NCBI RefSeq assembly: GCF_044324875.1
Contig: NZ_CP172185.1
Source of the DNA: Escherichia coli
GTDB lineage: Bacteria; Pseudomonadota; Gammaproteobacteria; Enterobacterales; Enterobacteriaceae
Strand: one strand, 5' to 3'
Length of the DNA: 64,000 bases
The position numbers and the translations under genes are program-made. Below are positions 5,176 to 56,466 of the stretch, piece after piece. Every line of letters starts with the position of its first letter. The stretch's first letter is position 1. The notes beneath the pieces were generated by a model. The model made no database searches. It had not been told where the DNA came from and saw nothing but the letters and a program-made list of their open reading frames with translations.

Positions 5176-6366
5176 ATGAGTGTACGTTTAGTGTTAGCCA
5201 AAGGGCGCGAAAAATCATTACTTCGTCGCCATCCGTGGATCTTTTCCGGGGCCGTTGCCCGCATGGAAGGTAAAGCCAGCCTCGGGGAAACCATCAATAT
5301 TGTTGATCATCAGGGAAAATGGTTAGCACGCGGCGCTTATTCGCCAGCTTCGCAAATCCGGGCGCGCGTCTGGACGTTTGACCCGAATGAATCTATCGAC
5401 ATTGCTTTTTTTACCCGCCGTTTGCAACAAGCGCAAAAATGGCGTGACTGGCTGGCGCAAAAAGATGGCCTCGACAGCTATCGTTTAATCGCCGGAGAAT
5501 CTGATGGCCTGCCGGGTATTACTATCGATCGTTTCGGTAATTTTCTGGTGCTGCAACTACTGAGTGCTGGCGCAGAGTATCAGCGCGCGGCATTAATTAG
5601 CGCCCTGCAAACGCTGTACCCGGAATGTGCGATTTACGATCGCAGCGATGTTGCGGTACGTAAAAAAGAAGGGATGGAGCTGACCCAGGGCCCCGTCACC
5701 GGCGAGTTGCCGCCTGCCCTGCTGCCGATTGAAGAACACGGCATGAAGCTGCTGGTGGATATTCAGCACGGACACAAAACGGGCTACTACCTGGATCAGC
5801 GTGATAGCCGCCTGGCTACCCGCCGCTACGTTGAAAATAAACGCGTACTGAACTGTTTCTCCTATACCGGTGGTTTCGCCGTATCGGCACTGATGGGCGG
5901 TTGCAGCCAGGTTGTCAGCGTTGATACCTCCTAGGAAGCCCTGGATATTGCACGGCAGAACGTTGAGCTGAACAAACTGGATCTGAGCAAGGCTGAGTTT
6001 GTCCGTGATGATGTCTTTAAATTGCTGCGTACCTATCGCGATCGCGGTGAAAAATTTGACGTTATCGTGATGGACCCGCCGAAGTTTGTTGAGAATAAAA
6101 GCCAGTTGATGGGCGCGTGTCGTGGCTATAAAGATATCAACATGCTGGCGATTCAGTTGCTGAATGAAGGCGGTATTCTCCTGACTTTCTCCTGTTCTGG
6201 CCTGATGACCAGCGATTTATTTCAGAAAATCATCGCAGATGCCGCAATTGATGCCGGTCGTGATGTACAATTTATAGAGCAGTTCCGTCAGGCAGCCGAT
6301 CATCCGGTGATCGCTACCTATCCGGAAGGGCTATATCTGAAAGGGTTTGCCTGTCGCGTCATGTAA
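5176..6366 (+). pseudogene. rlmI: 23S rRNA m5C1962 methyltransferase RlmI, interrupted by an in-frame TAG at 5932..5934
   Basis: ORFs 5176..5934 and 6022..6366 share one frame; spliced length is 396 codons, the RlmI length; translation continues ...[21 protein letters not shown]... with no other stop. Confidence 0.85.
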
Positions 6367-15092: not shown

Positions 15093-16145
15093 ATGAAAAA
15101 GACAGCTATCGCGATTGCAGTGGCACTGGCTGGTTTCGCTACCGTAGCGCAGGCCGCTCCGAAAGATAACACCTGGTACACTGGTGCTAAACTGGGCTGG
15201 TCCCAGTACCATGACACTGGTTTTATTCCTAACAATGGTCCGACCCACGAAAACCAACTGGGTGCAGGTGCTTTTGGTGGTTACCAGGTTAACCCGTATG
15301 TTGGCTTTGAAATGGGTTACGACTGGTTAGGTCGTATGCCGTACAAAGGCGACAACATCAACGGCGCATACAAAGCTCAGGGCGTTCAGCTGACCGCTAA
15401 ACTGGGTTACCCAATCACTGACGATCTGGACATCTACACTCGTCTGGGTGGTATGGTATGGCGTGCAGACACCAAGGCTAACGTACCTGGTGGCGCATCT
15501 TTTAAAGACCACGACACCGGCGTTTCTCCGGTTTTCGCTGGCGGTGTTGAGTACGCGATCACTCCTGAAATCGCTACCCGTCTGGAATACCAGTGGACCA
15601 ACAACATCGGTGACGCACACACCATCGGTACTCGTCCGGACAACGGCATGCTGAGCCTGGGTGTTTCCTACCGTTTCGGTCAGGGCGAAGCAGCTCCAGT
15701 AGTTGCTCCGGCTCCAGCTCCGGCACCGGAAGTACAGACCAAGCACTTCACTCTGAAGTCTGACGTTCTGTTCACCTTCAACAAAGCAACCCTGAAACCA
15801 GAAGGTCAGGCTGCTCTGGATCAGCTGTACAGCCAGCTGAGCAACCTGGATCCGAAAGACGGTTCCGTAGTTGTTCTGGGTTACACTGACCGCATCGGTT
15901 CTGACGCTTACAACCAGGGTCTGTCCGAGCGCCGTGCTCAGTCTGTTGTTGATTACCTGATCTCCAAAGGTATCCCGGCAGACAAGATCTCCGCACGTGG
16001 TATGGGCGAATCCAACCCGGTTACTGGCAACACCTGTGACAACGTGAAACAGCGTGCTGCACTGATCGACTGCCTGGCTCCGGATCGTCGCGTAGAGATC
16101 GAAGTTAAAGGCATCAAAGACGTTGTAACTCAGCCGCAGGCTTAA
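15093..16145 (+). CDS. ompA: Outer membrane protein A
   Basis: Signal peptide [21 protein letters not shown], beta-barrel domain, APAPAP hinge, C-terminal peptidoglycan-binding domain; variant external loops. Confidence 0.95.
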
Positions 16146-16159
16146 GTTCTCGTCTGGTA

Positions 16160-16188
16160 AAAAACCCCGCTGCTGCGGGGTTTTTTTT
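16160..16188 (+). terminator. ompA rho-independent terminator
   Basis: AAAAACCCCGC-tgct-GCGGGGTTTTTTTT. Confidence 0.8.
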
Positions 16189-16900
16189 GTGCACAGAAAA
16201 CCCCCAGCTAGGCTGGGGGTTCCGGAAAGCTTTCAGCTTTGAGCCAGTTATTAAAACCCCTTTTGATTTGTTAAAACACCTTGCGGTCTGGCAACTGCAA
16301 GTGTCAAACAAGAAATCAAAAGGGGGTCCCAATGGGGAACGAAAAGAGCTTAGCGCACACCCGATGGAACTGTAAATATCACATAGTATTTGCGCCAAAA
16401 TACCGAAGACAGGTGTTCTACAGAGAGAAGCGTAGAGCAATAGGCTGTATTTTGAGAAAGCTGTGTGAGTGGAAAAGTGTACGGATTCTGGAAGCTGAAT
16501 GCTGTGCAGATCATATCCATATGCTTGTGGAGATCCCGCCCAAAATGAGCGTATCAGGCTTTATGGGATATCTGAAAGGGAAAAGCAGTCTGATGCTTTA
16601 CGAGCAGTTTGGTGATTTGAAATTCAAATACAGGAACAGGGAGTTCTGGTGCAGAGGGTATTACGTCGATACGGTGGGTAAGAACACGGCGAAGATACAG
16701 GATTACATAAAGCACCAGCTTGAAGAGGATAAAATGGGAGAGCAGTTATCGATTCCCTATCCGGGCAGCCCGTTTACGGGCCGTAAGTAACGAAGTTGGA
16801 TGCAAATGTCAGATCGTGTGCGCCTGTTAGGGCGCGGCTGGTAAGAGAGCCTTATAGGCGCATTTGAAAAACCTCCGGCTATGCCGGAGGATATTTATTC
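16189..16900 (+). mobile_element. IS200-family insertion sequence, copy 1 (about 712 bp)
   Basis: Identical to the copies at 48635..49346 and 55755..56466; left end GTGCACAGAAAACCCCCAGCTAGGCTGGGGG hairpin, right end CCTCCGGCTATGCCGGAGGATATTTATTC; single tnpA; no target duplication. Confidence 0.9.
16332..16790 (+). CDS. tnpA: IS200 transposase TnpA (Y1 HUH family)
   Basis: 152-aa product MGNEKSLAHTRWNCKYHIVFAPKYRR...HIHMLVEIPP, with the HxH motif and catalytic Tyr region typical of IS200/IS605 TnpA. Confidence 0.92.
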   Translation: MGNEKSLAHTRWNCKYHIVFAPKYRRQVFYREKRRAIGCILRKLCEWKSVRILEAECCADHIHMLVEIPPKMSVSGFMGYLKGKSSLMLYEQFGDLKFKYRNREFWCRGYYVDTVGKNTAKIQDYIKHQLEEDKMGEQLSIPYPGSPFTGRK

Positions 16901-25916: not shown

Positions 25917-28025
25917 TCAGGCTGCGGTAATCAGCCAGCAGTTGTGGATCTGGCGGTTACGGGCGAAATCCTGGGAGAGCGTTTTTTGCGTAATTTCTTG
26001 TGCTTTCAGTCCTAGTTTTGCCAGTCCGTCAAGATCCATACGGAAGCCACGTTTGTTGTTCGAGAACATTATCGTCCCACCAGCACGCAGCAGACGTTTC
26101 AAATCTTTCATCAGCGCCAGATGATCGCGCTGAACATCAAACGCATCTTCCATTCGTTTTGAGTTAGAGAAGGTTGGCGGATCGATAAAGATCAGATCGA
26201 ACTGTTCATTTGCCTCACGCAGCCACGCCAGGCAATCGGCCTGAATCAGGCGATGCGCACGCCCGGTTAGGCCATTCAGACGCAGGTTGCGTTCTGCCCA
26301 CTCCAGATAAGTACGCGACATATCCACGGTGGTGGTGCTGCGTGCACCGCCTAATCCCGCATGCACGGTGGCACTGCCGGTATAAGAGAACAGGTTGAGG
26401 AAATCTTTGCCTTTGCTCATCTGACCGAGCATACGGCGGGCGATACGGTGATCGAGGAACAGACCAGTATCGAGATAATCCGTCAGGTTCACCCACAAGT
26501 GAGCGTTATATTCGGTAACTTCAAGAAACTCGCCCTTCTCGCCCAGTTTCTGGTACTGGTTTTTGCCCTTCTGGCGTTCGCGGGTTTTCAGTACCAGTTT
26601 GTTTGGCGCAATCCCCAGTACCGAAATGGTTGCAGCGATAATATCGAACAGACGCTGACGCGCTTTGTGCGCATCAATAGTTTTTGGCGGCGCATACTCC
26701 TGCACCACCACCCAATCGGCGTAGCGGTCAACTGCAACGTTGTATTCCGGTAGATCGGCGTCGTACAGGCGGTAGCATTCAATGCCTTCCTGACGCGCCC
26801 ACTTCTCGAATTTTTTGAGGTTCTTACGCAGACGGTTGGCGTAGTCTTCTGCCACCATTGCCGGTTTGCTGTCTGGTGTGCTTTCGGCAACGTGGTAATT
26901 TTTCTGCACGCAGTCTAATGGACCGTTTTTCGCTTTGTACTGTTTGTCTGCACGCAACTGCAGGCAACTTAACAGATCCGGCGAGGCACTGAATAAAGAG
27001 AGATTCCAGCCGCCGAACTGGTTTTTCATGATTCGGCCCAGCAGGCTATGCAGCGCAATCAGCGCCGGTTCGCTGTCCAGACGTTCACCGTATGGCGGGT
27101 TGCTCAACACTGTACCGTACGGCCCTTTCGGCAGCGGATTGGTCAGTTGCGCGACATCTTTCACCTCAAAGGTGATCAGTTCACCAATCCCCGCAAGACG
27201 GGCGTTAGTGCGCGCACGTTGAATCACCCGTGCGTCGCTGTCCGAACCGTAAAAATGAGAGCTATACTCAGCCAGGCCTTTACGGGCGCGAGTTTGCGCT
27301 TCCGCTTTCACTTCCTGCCAGATAGCTTCATCATGCTGCGCCCAGCCGCTAAAGCCCCAACGCCCACGGTGCAAGCCTGGTGCGCGATCGGTCGCCAGCA
27401 TCGCCGCTTCAATCAGCAACGTACCGGAACCACACATCGGATCGAGCAGCGGTGTTCCTGGCTGCCAGCCGGATCGCATCACAATAGCGGCTGCCAGGGT
27501 TTCTTTGATCGGCGCAATACCAGCACGATCGCGATAGCCACGCAGATGTAAACCATCACCACTGAGATCAAGGGCGATACTGGCGGTTTCTTTATGCAGC
27601 CAGACGTTAACGCGGATATCCGGCGCATCACGATCAACATTTGGACGCGGCAGATTTTTCCGCGTGAAAGCATCGACAATCGCGTCTTTCACTTTCATCG
27701 CACCGTACTGACTGTTGCGGATGGTGTCATTCAAACCACTGAAGTGGACAGCGAAGGTCGCGCCAGGATTAAACATCTCTGTCCAGTTGATCGCCTGAAC
27801 ACCGAGATAGAGGTCTAAATCGCTGTAAACCTTACACTCGCCCAGCGGCAACATAATACGCGAGGCCAGGCGGCTCCACATCAGGCTCTGGTAAACAAGC
27901 CGTGTGTCGCCCTTGAAATGGACCCCACCCTGAACCACCTGGCATTCAACGGCCCCCAGGTTTTCCAGTTCAGTTTTTAACAGCTCTTCCAGCCCACGGG
28001 CCGTACTGGCAAACAGAGAATTCAT
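25917..28025 (-). CDS. rlmL: Bifunctional 23S rRNA m2G2445/m7G2069 methyltransferase RlmKL
   Basis: 702-aa [27 protein letters not shown] with two methyltransferase domains. Confidence 0.93.
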
Positions 28026-32991: not shown

Positions 32992-36653
<3,662 letters not shown>

Positions 36654-36677: not shown

Positions 36678-37379
36678 TTACGATTTACAGTTGAGTTGCG
36701 GCGTTTCCGCCCCGTAGTCATTGATGGTTCGGTACGTTACGCTACTGTTTTGAGCACCCTTTGGCAGAGGGAATTGGTATTTATCAAAGGGGGAAATCAT
36801 TTGATTTTTAACTACTTTTCCACCTATTTTCAGGTCTGTCAGGGTAATGAAATAAGGTGTTGGGTTACTGACCGTAACCATGTCAGCTGACGAAGTGCAA
36901 CGCAGTTTCGCCGGAGCCTCGGCTAAGGGATACGCTAAACCTTTTGGTCGCCAGAAAAGTTTGATGACGCTTTGTGTGGCAATCTTCAGGGTATTGCCTT
37001 CTTCCCGCTTCGTTGTTGAAGGGACTGCCCGTACGCTGGTGAAGAAAAGAGTTTCTCTGTCTTTCGCCAACGGCGCGCCAATGTACATAATGCGTAACAA
37101 ATTCTCGTTTGCCGGATTCAGCACAAATAGCGGTGGTGTAATAATAAAGTCCGCTGATTTTTTATTATCTGGTGTCATCACCCATGACTGAATAAGATAA
37201 GGAACATCCGGACTGGTGTTACGTACACCCAGTGAAATTTGCTCTTCACCTTCCGAATAAACAAGACGTGTTGCTGCAAGTCCGACCCCACCTTTACCTG
37301 CCGCCCATGTGAACGAACAGCTGAGTAATATTGCCGTTAAACTTACGGTCACAATTCCCTTTGTTATGCAAGTTTTCAT
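36678..37379 (-). CDS. elfD: Periplasmic fimbrial chaperone
   Basis: 233-aa ORF with signal peptide; PapD-like. Confidence 0.85.
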   Translation of the reverse strand: MKTCITKGIVTVSLTAILLSCSFTWAAGKGGVGLAATRLVYSEGEEQISLGVRNTSPDVPYLIQSWVMTPDNKKSADFIITPPLFVLNPANENLLRIMYIGAPLAKDRETLFFTSVRAVPSTTKREEGNTLKIATQSVIKLFWRPKGLAYPLAEAPAKLRCTSSADMVTVSNPTPYFITLTDLKIGGKVVKNQMISPFDKYQFPLPKGAQNSSVTYRTINDYGAETPQLNCKS

Positions 37380-37461
37380 AAATAGTCACTCTTAAAAAAT
37401 ATGGATATCCCCTCCAGAACACTGGAGGGGGACTAATTAATAAAACAATTAATGTGTTCTA

Positions 37462-38004
37462 TTAATAATAGTTAATATGAAAATCCGTTACCGCATTAAC
37501 ATTACCTGAAGTCGCTTTACCCGTAGCGATATAATCAACTTTAAAAGTCACTGTTTGCTCAGCGGAATCCGCTAACTGAATATTCGACGTTTCAATACCG
37601 GGAGTTACCGATGTAGAACCATCTGGCAGATACATTTGTAGAGCAACATTCGTCGCTGCATCGGTGGAAGCCTGGTTGGCAAATGCTGTAGGTTGCACTC
37701 CGTCAGCCGTACCACTGAAGGTAAAAGTCGCATTTTTAGTTACAGTAACATCACAGCCTTCTAAGGCAATTGGTACATCAGTTTTAACGCCAGAGACTGC
37801 ACCATTAGTTTGCAACTTGGTGGCGCTGACATTTGGCAATGTGACTACTGAATCTTTGGTCGCAGCTACCAGCGAACAAGCTGGAGCAATGACTTTACCA
37901 TTAAATGTTACTTTGCCATCCGTGATAGCATTATCATCAGCCGCCATAGCACTGGACGTTGCACATACCACAGTTATAAACGCCGTCAATACACTTTTTT
38001 TCAT
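37462..38004 (-). CDS. elfA: Major fimbrial subunit
   Basis: Start at MKKSVLTAFITVVCATSSAMA signal peptide; C-terminal TDFHINYY beta-strand. Confidence 0.85.
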   Translation of the reverse strand: MKKSVLTAFITVVCATSSAMAADDNAITDGKVTFNGKVIAPACSLVAATKDSVVTLPNVSATKLQTNGAVSGVKTDVPIALEGCDVTVTKNATFTFSGTADGVQPTAFANQASTDAATNVALQMYLPDGSTSVTPGIETSNIQLADSAEQTVTFKVDYIATGKATSGNVNAVTDFHINYY

Positions 38005-38013
38005 CGTTATCAT

Positions 38014-38360
38014 CCTGATTTTTTCGTAAATATGATAATGCCTTTAAATGACATTGGACTTAATAATAACAACAATTGTCCGCCATTTAAATCAAGCATC
38101 CTTAATCCAATAAGTGACAAATCTTTAATTTATAGATTTCATGAATATTTTCTTATTACCTGAATGAGTAATTCATTGATTCAACATCGACTGAATATCC
38201 AATAAATAAATACACGTGATACATATCCCTCAATCCTTAGTTCATTTTTAGAAAAAGATACACAAAATTTATATTTGGCATTTTCTTGTCTCTCCGACAG
38301 ACTGACCGAATTGTTATCAATGTTAACAAAAAAAAGAACAATTGGTTATAAGGAGAGAGT
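38014..38360. promoter_or_regulatory. AT-rich divergent control region between elfA and ssuE
   Basis: About 350 bp, visibly strongly AT-rich with A/T tracts; lies between two divergent operons. Confidence 0.5.
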
Positions 38361-38936
38361 ATGCGTGTCATCACCCTGGCGGGTAGTCCTCGCTTTCCTT
38401 CTCGCTCCAGCTCCTTGCTGGAATATGCGCGGGAAAAACTGAATGGCCTGGATGTAGAGGTTTATCACTGGAATCTGCAAAACTTTGCCCCGGAAGATCT
38501 GCTTTATGCTCGTTTCGATAGTCCGGCACTCAAGACCTTCACCGAACAGCTGCAACAGGCTGATGGACTGATAGTCGCTACACCTGTGTATAAAGCCGCC
38601 TATTCCGGCGCGCTGAAAACCCTGCTCGACCTGCTCCCAGAGCGCGCTTTGCAAGGCAAAGTGGTGCTGCCGCTGGCGACAGGCGGCACGGTGGCTCATC
38701 TTTTGGCGGTCGATTACGCCCTTAAACCAGTTTTAAGTGCGCTGAAAGCCCAGGAGATCCTGCACGGCGTGTTTGCCGATGACTCACAGGTGATTGATTA
38801 CCACCACAAGCCGCAGTTCACGCCGAATTTACAAACCCGTCTTGATACCGCGCTAGAAACTTTCTGGCAGGCATTGCACCGTCGGGATGTTCAGGTTCCT
38901 GACCTTCTGTCTCTGCGAGGTAATGCCCATGCGTAA
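38361..38936 (+). CDS. ssuE: NADPH-dependent FMN reductase
   Basis: 191-aa ORF MRVITLAGSPRFPSRSS. Confidence 0.92.
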   Translation: MRVITLAGSPRFPSRSSSLLEYAREKLNGLDVEVYHWNLQNFAPEDLLYARFDSPALKTFTEQLQQADGLIVATPVYKAAYSGALKTLLDLLPERALQGKVVLPLATGGTVAHLLAVDYALKPVLSALKAQEILHGVFADDSQVIDYHHKPQFTPNLQTRLDTALETFWQALHRRDVQVPDLLSLRGNAHA

Positions 38937-39888
38937 GATCATTAAACTGGCGCTGGCGGGATTGCTTAGCGTCTCTACACTTGCTGTTGCCGCGGAGTCT
39001 TCGCCAGAGGCGTTACGGATTGGCTATCAGAAAAGCAACATCAGTTCGGTGCTGGCGAAAAATTACCAAATGCTGGAAAAACGCTATCCGCAAACAAAAA
39101 TCTCCTGGGTGGAGTTCCCGGCTGGCCCGCAGATGCTGGAGGCACTGAACGTCGGTAGTATCGATCTGGGTAGTACGGGAGATATTCCGCCAATCTTTGC
39201 TCAGGCCGCCGGGGCTGATTTGCTGTATGTGGGTGTCGAGCCACCGAAGCCCAAAGCCGAAGTGATTCTGGTGGCAGAAAATAGCCCGATCAAAACCGTA
39301 GCCGATCTTAAAGGTCACAAAGTTGCCTTTCAGAAAGGTTCCAGTTCGCACAATCTTTTACTACGCGCACTACGCCAGGCCGGGCTTAAGTTTACCGATA
39401 TACAACCCACTTACCTGACACCCGCTGATGCCCGCGCCGCGTTCCAGCTAGGTAACGTTGACGCCTGGGCTATCTGGGATCCCTACTACTCCGCTGCATT
39501 ATTACAGGGCGGCGTGCGGGTGTTGAAAGACGGCACCGATCTCAATCAAACCGGATCGTTTTATCTGGCAGCCCGTCCGTATGCAGAAAAAAACGGCGCA
39601 GTTATTCAGGGTGTACTGGCAACCTTTAGTGAGGCCGATGCGTTAACCCGCAGCCAGCGCGAGCAAAGCATCGCCTTATTGGCAAAAACGATGGGCTTAC
39701 CGGCCCCGGTGATTGCCTCGTATCTGGATCATCGCCCTCCCACCACCATCAAACCGGTTAACGCCGAAGTTGCCGCCTTACAGCAGCAAACGGCAGATCT
39801 GTTTTATGAAAACCGTCTGGTGCCGAAAAAAGTCGATATTCGCCAGCGTATCTGGCAGCCCACTCAACTGGAAGGAAAACAATTATGA
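38929..39888 (+). CDS. ssuA: Aliphatic sulfonate ABC transporter periplasmic binding protein
   Basis: 319-aa product [21 protein letters not shown]; overlaps ssuE stop. Confidence 0.9.
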
Positions 39889-41832: not shown

Positions 41833-42596
41833 ATACTGCTCGTCTGAACCAGGGCACACCATTGTTGCTCAATGCAGTAAGCAAACATTACGCGGAAAAT
41901 ATCGTCCTGAACCAACTGGATTTACATATTCCGGCTGGTCAGTTTGTGGCGGTGGTGGGCCGCAGCGGTGGTGGCAAAAGTACCCTGCTGCGCCTGCTGG
42001 CAGGTCTGGAAACGCCAACCGCTGGCGATGTGTTAGCGGGCACCACACCGCTGGCTGAAATTCAGGAAGACACGCGAATGATGTTTCAGGATGCGCGTCT
42101 GCTGCCGTGGAAATCGGTGATTGATAACGTTGGGTTAGGCCTTAAAGGCCAGTGGCGCGATGCCGCGCGTCGGGCGTTGGCTGCAGTAGGACTGGAGAAT
42201 CGCGCGGGGGAATGGCCTGCCGCACTTTCTGGCGGGCAGAAACAGCGTGTGGCGCTGGCAAGAGCGTTGATTCATCGACCGGGTTTATTATTGCTTGATG
42301 AACCGCTCGGGGCGCTGGACGCCTTAACGCGACTCGAGATGCAGGATTTGATTGTGTCACTTTGGCAGGAGCACGACTTTACCGTACTGTTGGTGACGCA
42401 TGATGTGAGCGAAGCGGTAGCAATGGCTGACCGGGTGTTGTTAATTGAAGAGGGAAAAATTGGTCTGGATTTGACGGTGGATATCCCCCGTCCGCGCCGG
42501 TTAGGGTCGGTGCGATTAGCGGAGCTGGAAGCGGAAGTGTTGCAACGGGTGATGCAGCGTGGGCACTCTGAACAACCGATTCGGCGTCATGGTTAA
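41829..42596 (+). CDS. ssuB: Aliphatic sulfonate ABC transporter ATP-binding protein
   Basis: 255-aa ORF with Walker [10 protein letters not shown] and ABC signature LSGGQKQR. Confidence 0.92.
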
Positions 42597-42597
42597 T

Positions 42598-42795
42598 ATG
42601 CCGGATGTGGCGCACAAAACCAGCAGTTTCAACGGATTGTAGGCCTGATAAGACGCGTCAAGCGTCGCATCAGGCATTTGGGCACGGCTGCCGGATGCGG
42701 CGTGAACGCCTTATCCAGCCTACAAAACCAGCATTTTCAACGGACTTGTAGGCCTGACAAGACGCGTCAAGCGTCGCATCCGGCATTTTGGCTCA
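42598..42795. repeat. REP/BIME cluster
   Basis: Two near-identical units of about 95 bp (AAAACCAGCAGTTTCAACGGATTGTAGGCCTGATAAGACGCGTCAAGCGTCGCATCAGGCAT and its second copy) plus GCCGGATGCGGCGTGAACGCCTTATCC REP palindromes. Confidence 0.85.
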
Positions 42796-42801
42796 AAAGT
42801 A

Positions 42802-48634: not shown

Positions 48635-49346
48635 GTGCACAGAAAACCCCCAGCTAGGCTGGGGGTTCCGGAAAGCTTTCAGCTTTGAGCCAGTTATTAA
48701 AACCCCTTTTGATTTGTTAAAACACCTTGCGGTCTGGCAACTGCAAGTGTCAAACAAGAAATCAAAAGGGGGTCCCAATGGGGAACGAAAAGAGCTTAGC
48801 GCACACCCGATGGAACTGTAAATATCACATAGTATTTGCGCCAAAATACCGAAGACAGGTGTTCTACAGAGAGAAGCGTAGAGCAATAGGCTGTATTTTG
48901 AGAAAGCTGTGTGAGTGGAAAAGTGTACGGATTCTGGAAGCTGAATGCTGTGCAGATCATATCCATATGCTTGTGGAGATCCCGCCCAAAATGAGCGTAT
49001 CAGGCTTTATGGGATATCTGAAAGGGAAAAGCAGTCTGATGCTTTACGAGCAGTTTGGTGATTTGAAATTCAAATACAGGAACAGGGAGTTCTGGTGCAG
49101 AGGGTATTACGTCGATACGGTGGGTAAGAACACGGCGAAGATACAGGATTACATAAAGCACCAGCTTGAAGAGGATAAAATGGGAGAGCAGTTATCGATT
49201 CCCTATCCGGGCAGCCCGTTTACGGGCCGTAAGTAACGAAGTTGGATGCAAATGTCAGATCGTGTGCGCCTGTTAGGGCGCGGCTGGTAAGAGAGCCTTA
49301 TAGGCGCATTTGAAAAACCTCCGGCTATGCCGGAGGATATTTATTC
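48635..49346 (+). mobile_element. IS200-family insertion sequence, copy 2, inside the ompF upstream regulatory region
   Basis: Identical to copy 1; left end abuts AATCCGCA-ttcttatt-GCGGATT hairpin plus T-run. Confidence 0.9.
48778..49236 (+). CDS. tnpA: IS200 transposase TnpA
   Basis: Protein identical to the copy-1 TnpA. Confidence 0.92.
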   Translation: MGNEKSLAHTRWNCKYHIVFAPKYRRQVFYREKRRAIGCILRKLCEWKSVRILEAECCADHIHMLVEIPPKMSVSGFMGYLKGKSSLMLYEQFGDLKFKYRNREFWCRGYYVDTVGKNTAKIQDYIKHQLEEDKMGEQLSIPYPGSPFTGRK

Positions 49347-49764: not shown

Positions 49765-50853
49765 ATGATGAAGCGCAATATTCTGGCAGTGATCGTCCCT
49801 GCTCTGTTAGTAGCAGGTACTGCAAACGCTGCAGAAATCTATAACAAAGATGGCAACAAAGTAGATCTGTACGGTAAAGCTGTCGGTCTGCATTATTTCT
49901 CCAAGGGTAACGGTGAAAACAGTTACGGTGGCAATGGTGACATGACCTATGCCCGTCTTGGTTTTAAAGGGGAAACTCAAATCAATTCCGATCTGACCGG
50001 TTATGGTCAGTGGGAATATAACTTCCAGGGTAACAACTCTGAAGGCGCTGACGCTCAAACTGGTAACAAAACGCGTCTGGCATTCGCGGGTCTTAAATAC
50101 GCTGACGTTGGTTCTTTCGATTACGGCCGTAACTACGGTGTGGTTTATGATGCACTGGGTTACACCGATATGCTGCCAGAATTTGGTGGTGATACTGCAT
50201 ACAGCGATGACTTCTTCGTTGGTCGTGTTGGCGGCGTTGCTACCTATCGTAACTCCAACTTCTTTGGTCTGGTTGATGGCCTGAACTTCGCTGTTCAGTA
50301 CCTGGGTAAAAATGAGCGTGACACTGCACGCCGCTCTAACGGCGACGGTGTTGGCGGTTCTATCAGCTACGAATACGAAGGCTTTGGTATCGTTGGTGCT
50401 TATGGCGCCGCTGACCGTACCAACCTGCAAGAAGCTCAACCTCTTGGCAACGGTAAAAAAGCTGAACAGTGGGCTACTGGTCTGAAGTATGACGCGAACA
50501 ACATCTACCTGGCAGCGAACTACGGTGAAACCCGTAACGCTACGCCGATCACTAATAAATTTACAAACATCAGCGGCTTCGCCAACAAAACGCAAGACGT
50601 TCTGTTAGTTGCGCAATACCAGTTCGATTTCGGTCTGCGTCCGTCCATCGCTTACACCAAATCTAAAGCGAAAGACGTAGAAGGTATCGGTGATGTTGAT
50701 CTGGTGAACTACTTTGAAGTGGGAGCAACCTACTACTTCAACAAAAACATGTCCACCTATGTTGACTACATCATCAACCAGATCGATTCTGACAACAAAC
50801 TGGGCGTAGGTTCTGACGACACCGTTGCTGTGGGTATCGTTTACCAGTTCTAA
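49765..50853 (+). CDS. ompF: Outer membrane porin OmpF
   Basis: 362-aa ORF, signal peptide [23 protein letters not shown]-terminal VAVGIVYQF. Confidence 0.95.
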
Positions 50854-52240: not shown

Positions 52241-52270
52241 ATGAAGCCCGCTTAAAAAGCGGGCTTTTTT
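52241..52270. terminator. Bidirectional terminator between aspC and gloC
   Basis: AAGCCCGC-ttaaaaa-GCGGGCTT with flanking T-run. Confidence 0.75.
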
Positions 52271-55754: not shown

Positions 55755-56466
55755 GAATAAATATCCTCCGGCATAGCCGGAGGTTTTTCAAATGCGCCTA
55801 TAAGGCTCTCTTACCAGCCGCGCCCTAACAGGCGCACACGATCTGACATTTGCATCCAACTTCGTTACTTACGGCCCGTAAACGGGCTGCCCGGATAGGG
55901 AATCGATAACTGCTCTCCCATTTTATCCTCTTCAAGCTGGTGCTTTATGTAATCCTGTATCTTCGCCGTGTTCTTACCCACCGTATCGACGTAATACCCT
56001 CTGCACCAGAACTCCCTGTTCCTGTATTTGAATTTCAAATCACCAAACTGCTCGTAAAGCATCAGACTGCTTTTCCCTTTCAGATATCCCATAAAGCCTG
56101 ATACGCTCATTTTGGGCGGGATCTCCACAAGCATATGGATATGATCTGCACAGCATTCAGCTTCCAGAATCCGTACACTTTTCCACTCACACAGCTTTCT
56201 CAAAATACAGCCTATTGCTCTACGCTTCTCTCTGTAGAACACCTGTCTTCGGTATTTTGGCGCAAATACTATGTGATATTTACAGTTCCATCGGGTGTGC
56301 GCTAAGCTCTTTTCGTTCCCCATTGGGACCCCCTTTTGATTTCTTGTTTGACACTTGCAGTTGCCAGACCGCAAGGTGTTTTAACAAATCAAAAGGGGTT
56401 TTAATAACTGGCTCAAAGCTGAAAGCTTTCCGGAACCCCCAGCCTAGCTGGGGGTTTTCTGTGCAC
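55755..56466 (-). mobile_element. IS200-family insertion sequence, copy 3 (inverted)
   Basis: Reverse complement identical to copies 1 and 2; left end abuts the mukB terminator T-run. Confidence 0.9.
55865..56323 (-). CDS. tnpA: IS200 transposase TnpA
   Basis: Protein identical to the copy-1 and copy-2 TnpA. Confidence 0.92.
   Translation of the reverse strand: MGNEKSLAHTRWNCKYHIVFAPKYRRQVFYREKRRAIGCILRKLCEWKSVRILEAECCADHIHMLVEIPPKMSVSGFMGYLKGKSSLMLYEQFGDLKFKYRNREFWCRGYYVDTVGKNTAKIQDYIKHQLEEDKMGEQLSIPYPGSPFTGRK

Follow-up and report, generated by a model that had tools for sequence, protein, structure and literature searches.

How unusual is the OmpA protein encoded in this stretch of the Escherichia coli genome, and do its surface loops tell us something about the strain or only that it is not K-12? 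The DNA that we analyzed, which we will call the window, is 64,000 nucleotides long. The original prediction, which was made from the sequence alone, was that its ompA gene carries a set of external loops that is not found in K-12. We argue that this gene is almost certainly an unremarkable copy of OmpA-long, which is one of two major isoforms of OmpA in natural E. coli, that it has been inherited vertically, and that within this isoform it belongs to the III/beta combination of sequence patterns.

We begin with the gene itself, which is intact: a GAGG ribosome-binding site is followed by an uninterrupted reading frame of 350 codons and a TAA stop codon, so the product has 350 amino acids (Table 1). 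Both of the expected Pfam domains are full length. Residues 23-199 align to positions 1-180 of the 180 positions in the profile for the barrel (PF01389, E = 1.2e-79), and the periplasmic domain at the C terminus (PF00691, E = 8.7e-24) has N228T as its sole change relative to K-12. The alignment to K-12 also shows that the signal peptide, the proline-rich hinge, and the pair of cysteines in the C-terminal domain are all conserved. We take the signal peptide to be cleaved after AQA, as in K-12 OmpA. The gene order of K-12 (yccS-sxy-sulA-ompA-matP-ycbZ) is maintained, and ompA lies between sulA and matP as expected, with a 712-bp IS200C element between its terminator and matP. We found no evidence that contradicts the identification of the protein as OmpA, and its standard architecture (signal peptide, barrel, proline-rich hinge, and peptidoglycan-binding domain) is unchanged. 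The barrel core and the C-terminal domain had been recognized from the sequence as those of E. coli OmpA, and the full-length domains and the alignment with K-12 agree.

Table 1. Features of ompA and the IS200C copies, in positions of the window. Values of dS and dN are from Nei-Gojobori counts for the window's ompA against K-12 ompA.
Feature	Position	Strand	Remarks
ompA coding sequence	15093..16145	+	OmpA-long, Liao pattern III, C-terminal pattern beta; protein is WP_000750418.1
Signal peptide, codons 1-21	15093..15155	+	same as K-12 by alignment
8-stranded beta-barrel domain, residues 23-199 (PF01389)	15159..15689	+	Pfam; 100% identity to PDB 9FZD chain A over residues 22-195
Loop 1 difference, Pro46 (codon CCT, mature residue 25) where K-12 has Asn	15228..15230	+	alignment; loop assignment from PMC5413513
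Loop 2 difference, Asp-Asn-Ile at 87-89 where K-12 has Ser-Val-Glu	15351..15359	+	alignment; loop assignment from PMC5413513
Loop 3 variant, 11 residues (SNVYGKN in K-12)	15477..15509	+	12-nt insertion at ~15491-15502 in the DNA alignment; loop assignment from PMC5413513
Hyper-divergent segment, codons 44-148, loops 1-3	15222..15536	+	30 of 35 substitutions relative to K-12; dS 0.31 (dN 0.056), versus dS 0.027 in codons 149-350
Codons 1-43			dS 0, dN 0, window versus K-12
Codons 149-350			dS 0.027, dN 0.002, window versus K-12
Periplasmic OmpA-like domain, residues 226-321 (PF00691)	15768..16055	+	Pfam
C-terminal domain difference, Thr228 (codon ACC, mature residue 203) where K-12 has Asn	15774..15776	+	contributes T203 to Liao pattern beta (A175, T203, G251)
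ompA intrinsic terminator, hairpin CCCCGC...GCGGGG then T8	16159..16188	+	intact; IS200C starts at the next base
IS200C copy 1, 712 bp	16189-16900	+	in the ompA-matP spacer, directly after the T8 of the terminator; Y1 transposase ORF at 16332-16790
IS200C copy 2, 712 bp	48635-49346	+	directly after the asnS terminator, upstream of ompF
IS200C copy 3, 712 bp	55755-56466	-	in the ldtD-mukB spacer, after a terminator-like hairpin

Are the loops really different from those of K-12? We aligned the window's gene to ompA of strain MG1655 (NC_000913, 1019013-1020053), both as protein and as DNA. Across the 346 residues that align, the complete set of changes from K-12 is N46P, S87D/V88N/E89I, S129A, Y132P, an insertion of GASF (residues 134-137), N139D, and N228T. 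In other words, K-12 OmpA (which is OmpA-short, pattern I/alpha; PDB 1BXW, 1QJP, and 9FZC) has the same signal peptide, the same hinge, the same beta-strands throughout, the same loop 4, the same chromosomal position between sulA and matP, and the same C-terminal domain except for one residue. It differs in loops 1-3 (seven substitutions and a four-residue insertion, which makes loop 3 four residues longer here than the SNVYGKN of K-12) and at residue 228. The two loop peptides that were quoted in the original prediction are both present in the reading frame, and the alignment establishes that loops 1-3 are not those of K-12.

At the DNA level, the window's ompA has 35 substitutions relative to K-12 and the one 12-nt insertion, for 95.5% identity, versus about 99% in the neighboring genes. 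Most of these substitutions (30 of 35) lie in nucleotides 130-445 of the gene, which account for just 304 of the 1041 aligned nucleotides (binomial P = 6e-12). If we slide a 300-bp window across the 64 kb and compare each of the 1204 positions to K-12, then the loop-coding stretch ranks 13th for divergence, with a peak of 12.7% versus a median of 2%. So the divergence of the ompA loops from K-12 is real and is far beyond what is expected by chance.

A different sequence is not necessarily a rare one. The protein is identical at all 350 of its 350 residues to RefSeq WP_000750418.1, which is annotated in E. coli strains CFSAN018748, ST2747, and KTa008. The genes for this protein in those strains have only silent nucleotide differences from the window's ompA (1 in CFSAN018748 and 7 each in ST2747 and KTa008). 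One of the window's bases, the A at nucleotide 708 of the gene (position 15800), was found in no other allele among the nine that we compared. The exact protein also appears in a collection of 15 billion proteins, on at least 1000 contigs, under the name "MULTISPECIES: porin OmpA [Enterobacteriaceae]".

The barrel of this protein has even been crystallized. A search of the Protein Data Bank showed that residues 22-195 are identical (174 of 174) to chain A of 9FZD, while the K-12 barrel corresponds to 9FZC. The 9FZD structure is the reference for OmpA-long, in complex with the nanobody Nb39 (Commun Biol 2025, PMC12259851); it has the same barrel and all four of the same loops, and because the construct contains only the transmembrane domain, Thr228 lies outside of it. 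The authors of that study collected OmpA from about 90,000 E. coli genomes, and clustered it into two main isoforms, OmpA-short (which is like K-12) and OmpA-long. They then cloned the commonest sequence from either isoform and obtained nanobodies that are strictly specific to one or the other.

OmpA-long is also common in our own counts. Of the 5426 complete E. coli genomes that we searched with an 81-nt probe across loop 3, 2124 (39%) have the long form, and 370 of the 5426 records contain an ompA that is at least 99% identical in nucleotides to this one over the whole gene. (Among the complete E. coli genomes, we also noticed 5 plasmid places that match ompA. For example, the small plasmid NZ_CP097216.1, of 4668 bp, has at 635-978 a gene for an "outer membrane beta-barrel protein" that is 90.7% identical to nucleotides 199-554 of ompA.) Because 39% of the complete genomes have the long loop 3 and because the barrel is identical to the crystallized, most frequent form of OmpA-long, this allele is not unusual. 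Indeed it is already known: databases list and name the exact protein, functional tests of its loop class have been published, and there is a crystal structure of its barrel. These results also leave practically no chance that the unfamiliar loops arose from an error in sequencing or assembly or that the gene is decaying. We found no point in favor of either idea, and the full-length open frame, the two complete domains, and the presence of the same protein in many independent genomes and in the crystallized construct rule them out.

Where does the allele fall within the published nomenclature? Using the definitions in PMC5413513 (Liao et al. 2017), the loops of the window's OmpA read P / DNI / ANVPGGASF / H, which is pattern III. 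That paper also reports that Pro25 in loop 1 and Asp-Asn-Ile in loop 2 co-occur with the long loop 3, and all three are present together here (in mature numbering), as expected for OmpA-long or pattern III. The C-terminal half has A175, T203, and G251 in mature numbering (A200, T228, and G276 of the precursor), which is pattern beta. None of the positions scored by Liao et al. differs from the III/beta combination, and the window's protein also has its M161. In their collections, III/beta was rarer than III/alpha, III/delta, or III/gamma. According to PMC5413513, which is our source for the following two studies, Gophna et al. 2004 found pattern III in the septicaemic O78 strain 789 and in CFT073, and Power et al. 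2006 gave the name ompA2 to a pattern II allele from strain B194. As described there, a PCR screen for ompA2 found its class of loop 3 in 43% of 524 strains (Power et al. 2006). The ompA2 allele (II/alpha in the scheme of Liao et al., for example WP_000750419.1 of ETEC-2264) has the same loops 1, 2, and 3 as the window's OmpA, and judging from this description, the PCR assay would score the window's allele as positive. Pattern II, as in ETEC-2264, differs by having Asn in loop 4 and Leu186, where the window has the His176 and Met186 of pattern III, and also by Val114 (Ile in the window) and Asn228 (Thr in the window). In our panel of alleles, the III/beta combination is found in the window, ST2747, KTa008, and CFSAN018748, while Ecol_244 is III/delta, ETEC-2264 is II/alpha, and the short forms have NVYG or NFDG.

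The two loop classes are more different than we would expect if only the protein had changed. Synonymous divergence from K-12 is more than 10 times higher around the loops than in the rest of the gene (Table 1), and because synonymous sites are also affected, the divergence of the loops is not simply due to rapid evolution of the protein. The E. coli classes, at 90.1% identity within codons 44-148, have diverged from one another about as much as either has from Salmonella in the remainder of the gene (about 90%).

To polarize the differences, we used as outgroups two Salmonella ompA genes that were found by exact-protein look-up. At the 30 sites in codons 44-148 that differ between the window and K-12, Salmonella has the window's base at 19-23 and the K-12 base at 6-9. 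In codons 87-128, Salmonella has the window's base at every differing site but one, and in codons 129-139 (up to position 15509), it does so at most of them. The proteins show a similar trend. Among three aligned OmpA proteins from Salmonella enterica, loop 2 is DNING in all three, as in the window, loop 1 is IPNNG in two, and loop 3 is at least as long as the window's in two, with the motif xGGxSTK(D/N)H. The Salmonella proteins are about 94% identical to the window's OmpA, and they differ from it in the exact residues of loop 3, in loop 4 (N), and at several positions in the strands. These few sequences suggest that, in loops 2-3, the long form is probably near the state of the enterobacterial ancestor, with the short form of K-12 being derived.

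Given these comparisons, it is most plausible that the loop classes represent a polymorphism of long standing within the species. This is what we would expect for a receptor under frequency-dependent selection by phages or hosts, with recombination within the gene, and we infer that the loop classes have been under balancing selection. Recombination between them is visible in our panel, as the allele of XJ6-3 is a recombinant of the two classes. A stronger version of this idea is that the loop classes are an ancient polymorphism of a phage receptor, possibly older than the species, with the window's allele being ancestral and the short loops of K-12 being a newcomer that evolved rapidly or was imported. 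With two Salmonella outgroups in hand, we consider this stronger version to be tentative: it could well be correct, yet we lean slightly against it. We also note that the title of Gophna et al. 2004, as it is cited in PMC5413513, indicates that the resemblance was discussed there as convergence.

If the allele is ordinary, what about the strain? The original prediction took the loops as a sign of a non-K-12 lineage or of a mosaic. The first of these turned out to be correct. The window is collinear with K-12 from 1,035,144 to 973,285 (reversed), in six blocks with 96.5-98.6% identity, so the lineage is non-K-12 across the whole window and not at ompA alone. Most genes in the window are between 97% and 99.7% identical to their K-12 counterparts, and the window contains three copies of IS200C that are absent from that region of K-12. 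A contrast had also been drawn with ompF, which was described as looking like that of K-12. This is true of the protein, in which just 1 of 362 residues differs (T269I). The DNA of ompF is 99.0% identical to K-12, which is ordinary background divergence. Because ompF thus resembles K-12 no more than its surroundings do, there is no meaningful contrast between ompA and ompF.

We found no sign of a mosaic that is specific to this strain. By the DNA that flanks ompA, the closest complete genomes are ST2747 and its relatives, at 99.3-99.5% identity, and none of the complete E. coli genomes exceeds about 99.5%. (Over about 6.6 kb that take in one end of the IS element beside matP, two draft assemblies match the window: GCA_002467655.1 at 100% and GCA_040713135.1 at 99.97%.) Because ST2747, the nearest genome by flanks, encodes an identical OmpA protein, we reject a strain-specific mosaic of ompA, and the match argues for vertical inheritance within the lineage and against a strain-specific import.

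Still, consider what an import would look like: the strain would have recently acquired the 5' segment of a foreign ompA by recombination, with the flanks remaining native. Divergence from K-12 does rise from about 1% in sulA and matP to as much as 12.7% in nucleotides ~110-450 of ompA, the synonymous differences are concentrated in the loop segment, and alleles such as that of XJ6-3, which join K-12-like and long-type segments, show that recombination within ompA occurs in E. coli. On the other hand, the sharp boundary belongs to the comparison between K-12 and the long class rather than to this strain. The ompA of ST2747 differs from the window's at only 7 nucleotides, none of which alters the protein, the same loop class is present in 39% of complete genomes, and the outgroup comparison suggests that it is the loop 2-3 segment of K-12 that is derived. 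So we think that a recent import into this strain is very improbable, and we will continue to treat the gene as vertically inherited.

A related question is whether the allele reflects Shigella, or another named lineage of Enterobacteriaceae, rather than E. coli sensu stricto. The exact protein is labelled as coming from multiple species of Enterobacteriaceae, a partial OmpA sequence from S. flexneri shares loops 1-3, and, within the window, rlmI is interrupted by a nonsense codon and IS200C is present three times. Also, the best match among complete E. coli genomes is at about 99.5%, and the collection that we compared to excludes Shigella genomes. Nevertheless, we think that such an origin is unlikely. 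Collinearity with K-12 at 96.5-98.6% identity is within the diversity of E. coli and Shigella, the genes that we compared at full length maintain their open frames with the exception of rlmI, and many strains of E. coli have the identical OmpA. In any case, the allele would be OmpA-long, and already known, whatever the name of the species. Beyond not being K-12, this allele says nothing unusual about the genome.

We now turn to what the loops might do. It had been predicted that the loops would give this OmpA a distinct receptor phenotype, and published experiments on this class of alleles, which by analogy should apply here, do report that phages and binders recognize it differently (PMC12032242, PMC12259851, and, in the account given by PMC5413513, Power 2006). 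According to PMC12032242, mutations in K-12 OmpA that confer resistance to phages were found at residues 25, 70, 110, and 154, in the four loops. The natural differences in the window's OmpA, at residues 25, 66-68, and 108-114, are at or near the mapped sites in loops 1-3. The same study describes eight variants of OmpA from the ECOR strains that were expressed in one background: phages with type-1 Gp38 infected all of them, while the host range of phages with type-2 Gp38 was limited to variants 1, 3, and 4, a restriction that is credited there to forms 3a/3b of loop 3 together with loop 2a. The nanobodies are also selective (Nb01 for OmpA-short and Nb39 for OmpA-long, with neither binding the other isoform), and each of them contacts all four loops (PMC12259851). 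Finally, swapping alleles of ompA altered the charge and hydrophobicity of the cell surface, the formation of biofilms, and killing by neutrophil elastase (PMC9560509).

These studies suggest a simple mechanism. The scaffold of OmpA (the strands, the hinge, and the periplasmic domain) is the same as in K-12, and the differences are confined to the tips of loops 1-3 and one periplasmic residue. The loops are the exposed face that is contacted by phage adhesins, colicins, antibodies, and host proteases, and therefore the allele would change which ligands can bind without affecting the structural role of the protein. Most plausibly, selection by phages or hosts maintains the loop classes and recombination shuffles them. 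By analogy, then, the window's OmpA should act as OmpA-long, with a normal structural role and with a spectrum of ligands and phages that is unlike that of K-12. In practice, knowing the isoform should help to predict which of the T-even-type phages that depend on OmpA can adsorb. It also informs the choice of nanobody or antibody reagents (Nb39, not Nb01) and whether vaccine antigens that are based on the loops would match. More broadly, results that were obtained with K-12 OmpA should not be assumed to be valid for this lineage.

Although ompA was our focus, it is not the most divergent part of the window. A patch that spans elfA-ssuE-ssuA (37301-39450) is up to 31% divergent from K-12, which exceeds ompA. 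Nucleotide identity to K-12 is 80.5% for elfA, 94.1% for ssuE, 91.8% for ssuA, 92.1% for elfG, and 94.3% for elfC. The divergent patches of elfG and elfC lie within 33001-36350 (at 33001-34450 and 35251-36350), and there is another divergent stretch in rlmL (26651-27150). The final 24 nt of ssuB, together with the sequence between it and pepN (42573-42799), do not align to K-12, and the spacer between aspC and gloC (52246-52265 in the window) is without about 150 bp of K-12 sequence (984,329-984,483). The differences in these two spacers may reflect REP-type elements. We also noticed that rlmI (5176-6366, + strand), which encodes the methyltransferase for m5C1962 of 23S rRNA, has a premature TAG at codon 253 (Q253*, at 5932-5934). 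From its sequence, rlmI is probably a pseudogene in this lineage.

Lastly, the three copies of IS200C are 100% identical to one another and encode a Y1 transposase (PF01797). Because the copies are identical, and because each lies directly 3' of a hairpin and a run of T without any duplication of the target, they suggest recent transposition with a preference for terminator-like sites. The contigs of draft assemblies from this lineage break at these copies. K-12 lacks the copy beside ompA, and we found no IS200C at this site in any of the 5426 complete E. coli genomes. With this copy in place, transcripts of matP would now meet the hairpin and T-run at the right end of the element rather than the shared terminator.

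The second copy might have consequences for porin regulation. The start codon of ompF (ATG at 49765) lies 418 bp downstream of the right end of this copy, and only 2 of 5426 complete genomes have an end of IS200C near this upstream flank, with a different spacing. We take the distal OmpR site F4 to lie at about -380 to -361 relative to the transcription start of ompF. If this position for F4 holds, then the second copy sits between F4 and sites F1-F3. In the accepted model, F4 acts through a DNA loop to repress ompF at high osmolarity, and so the insertion could disturb this repression.
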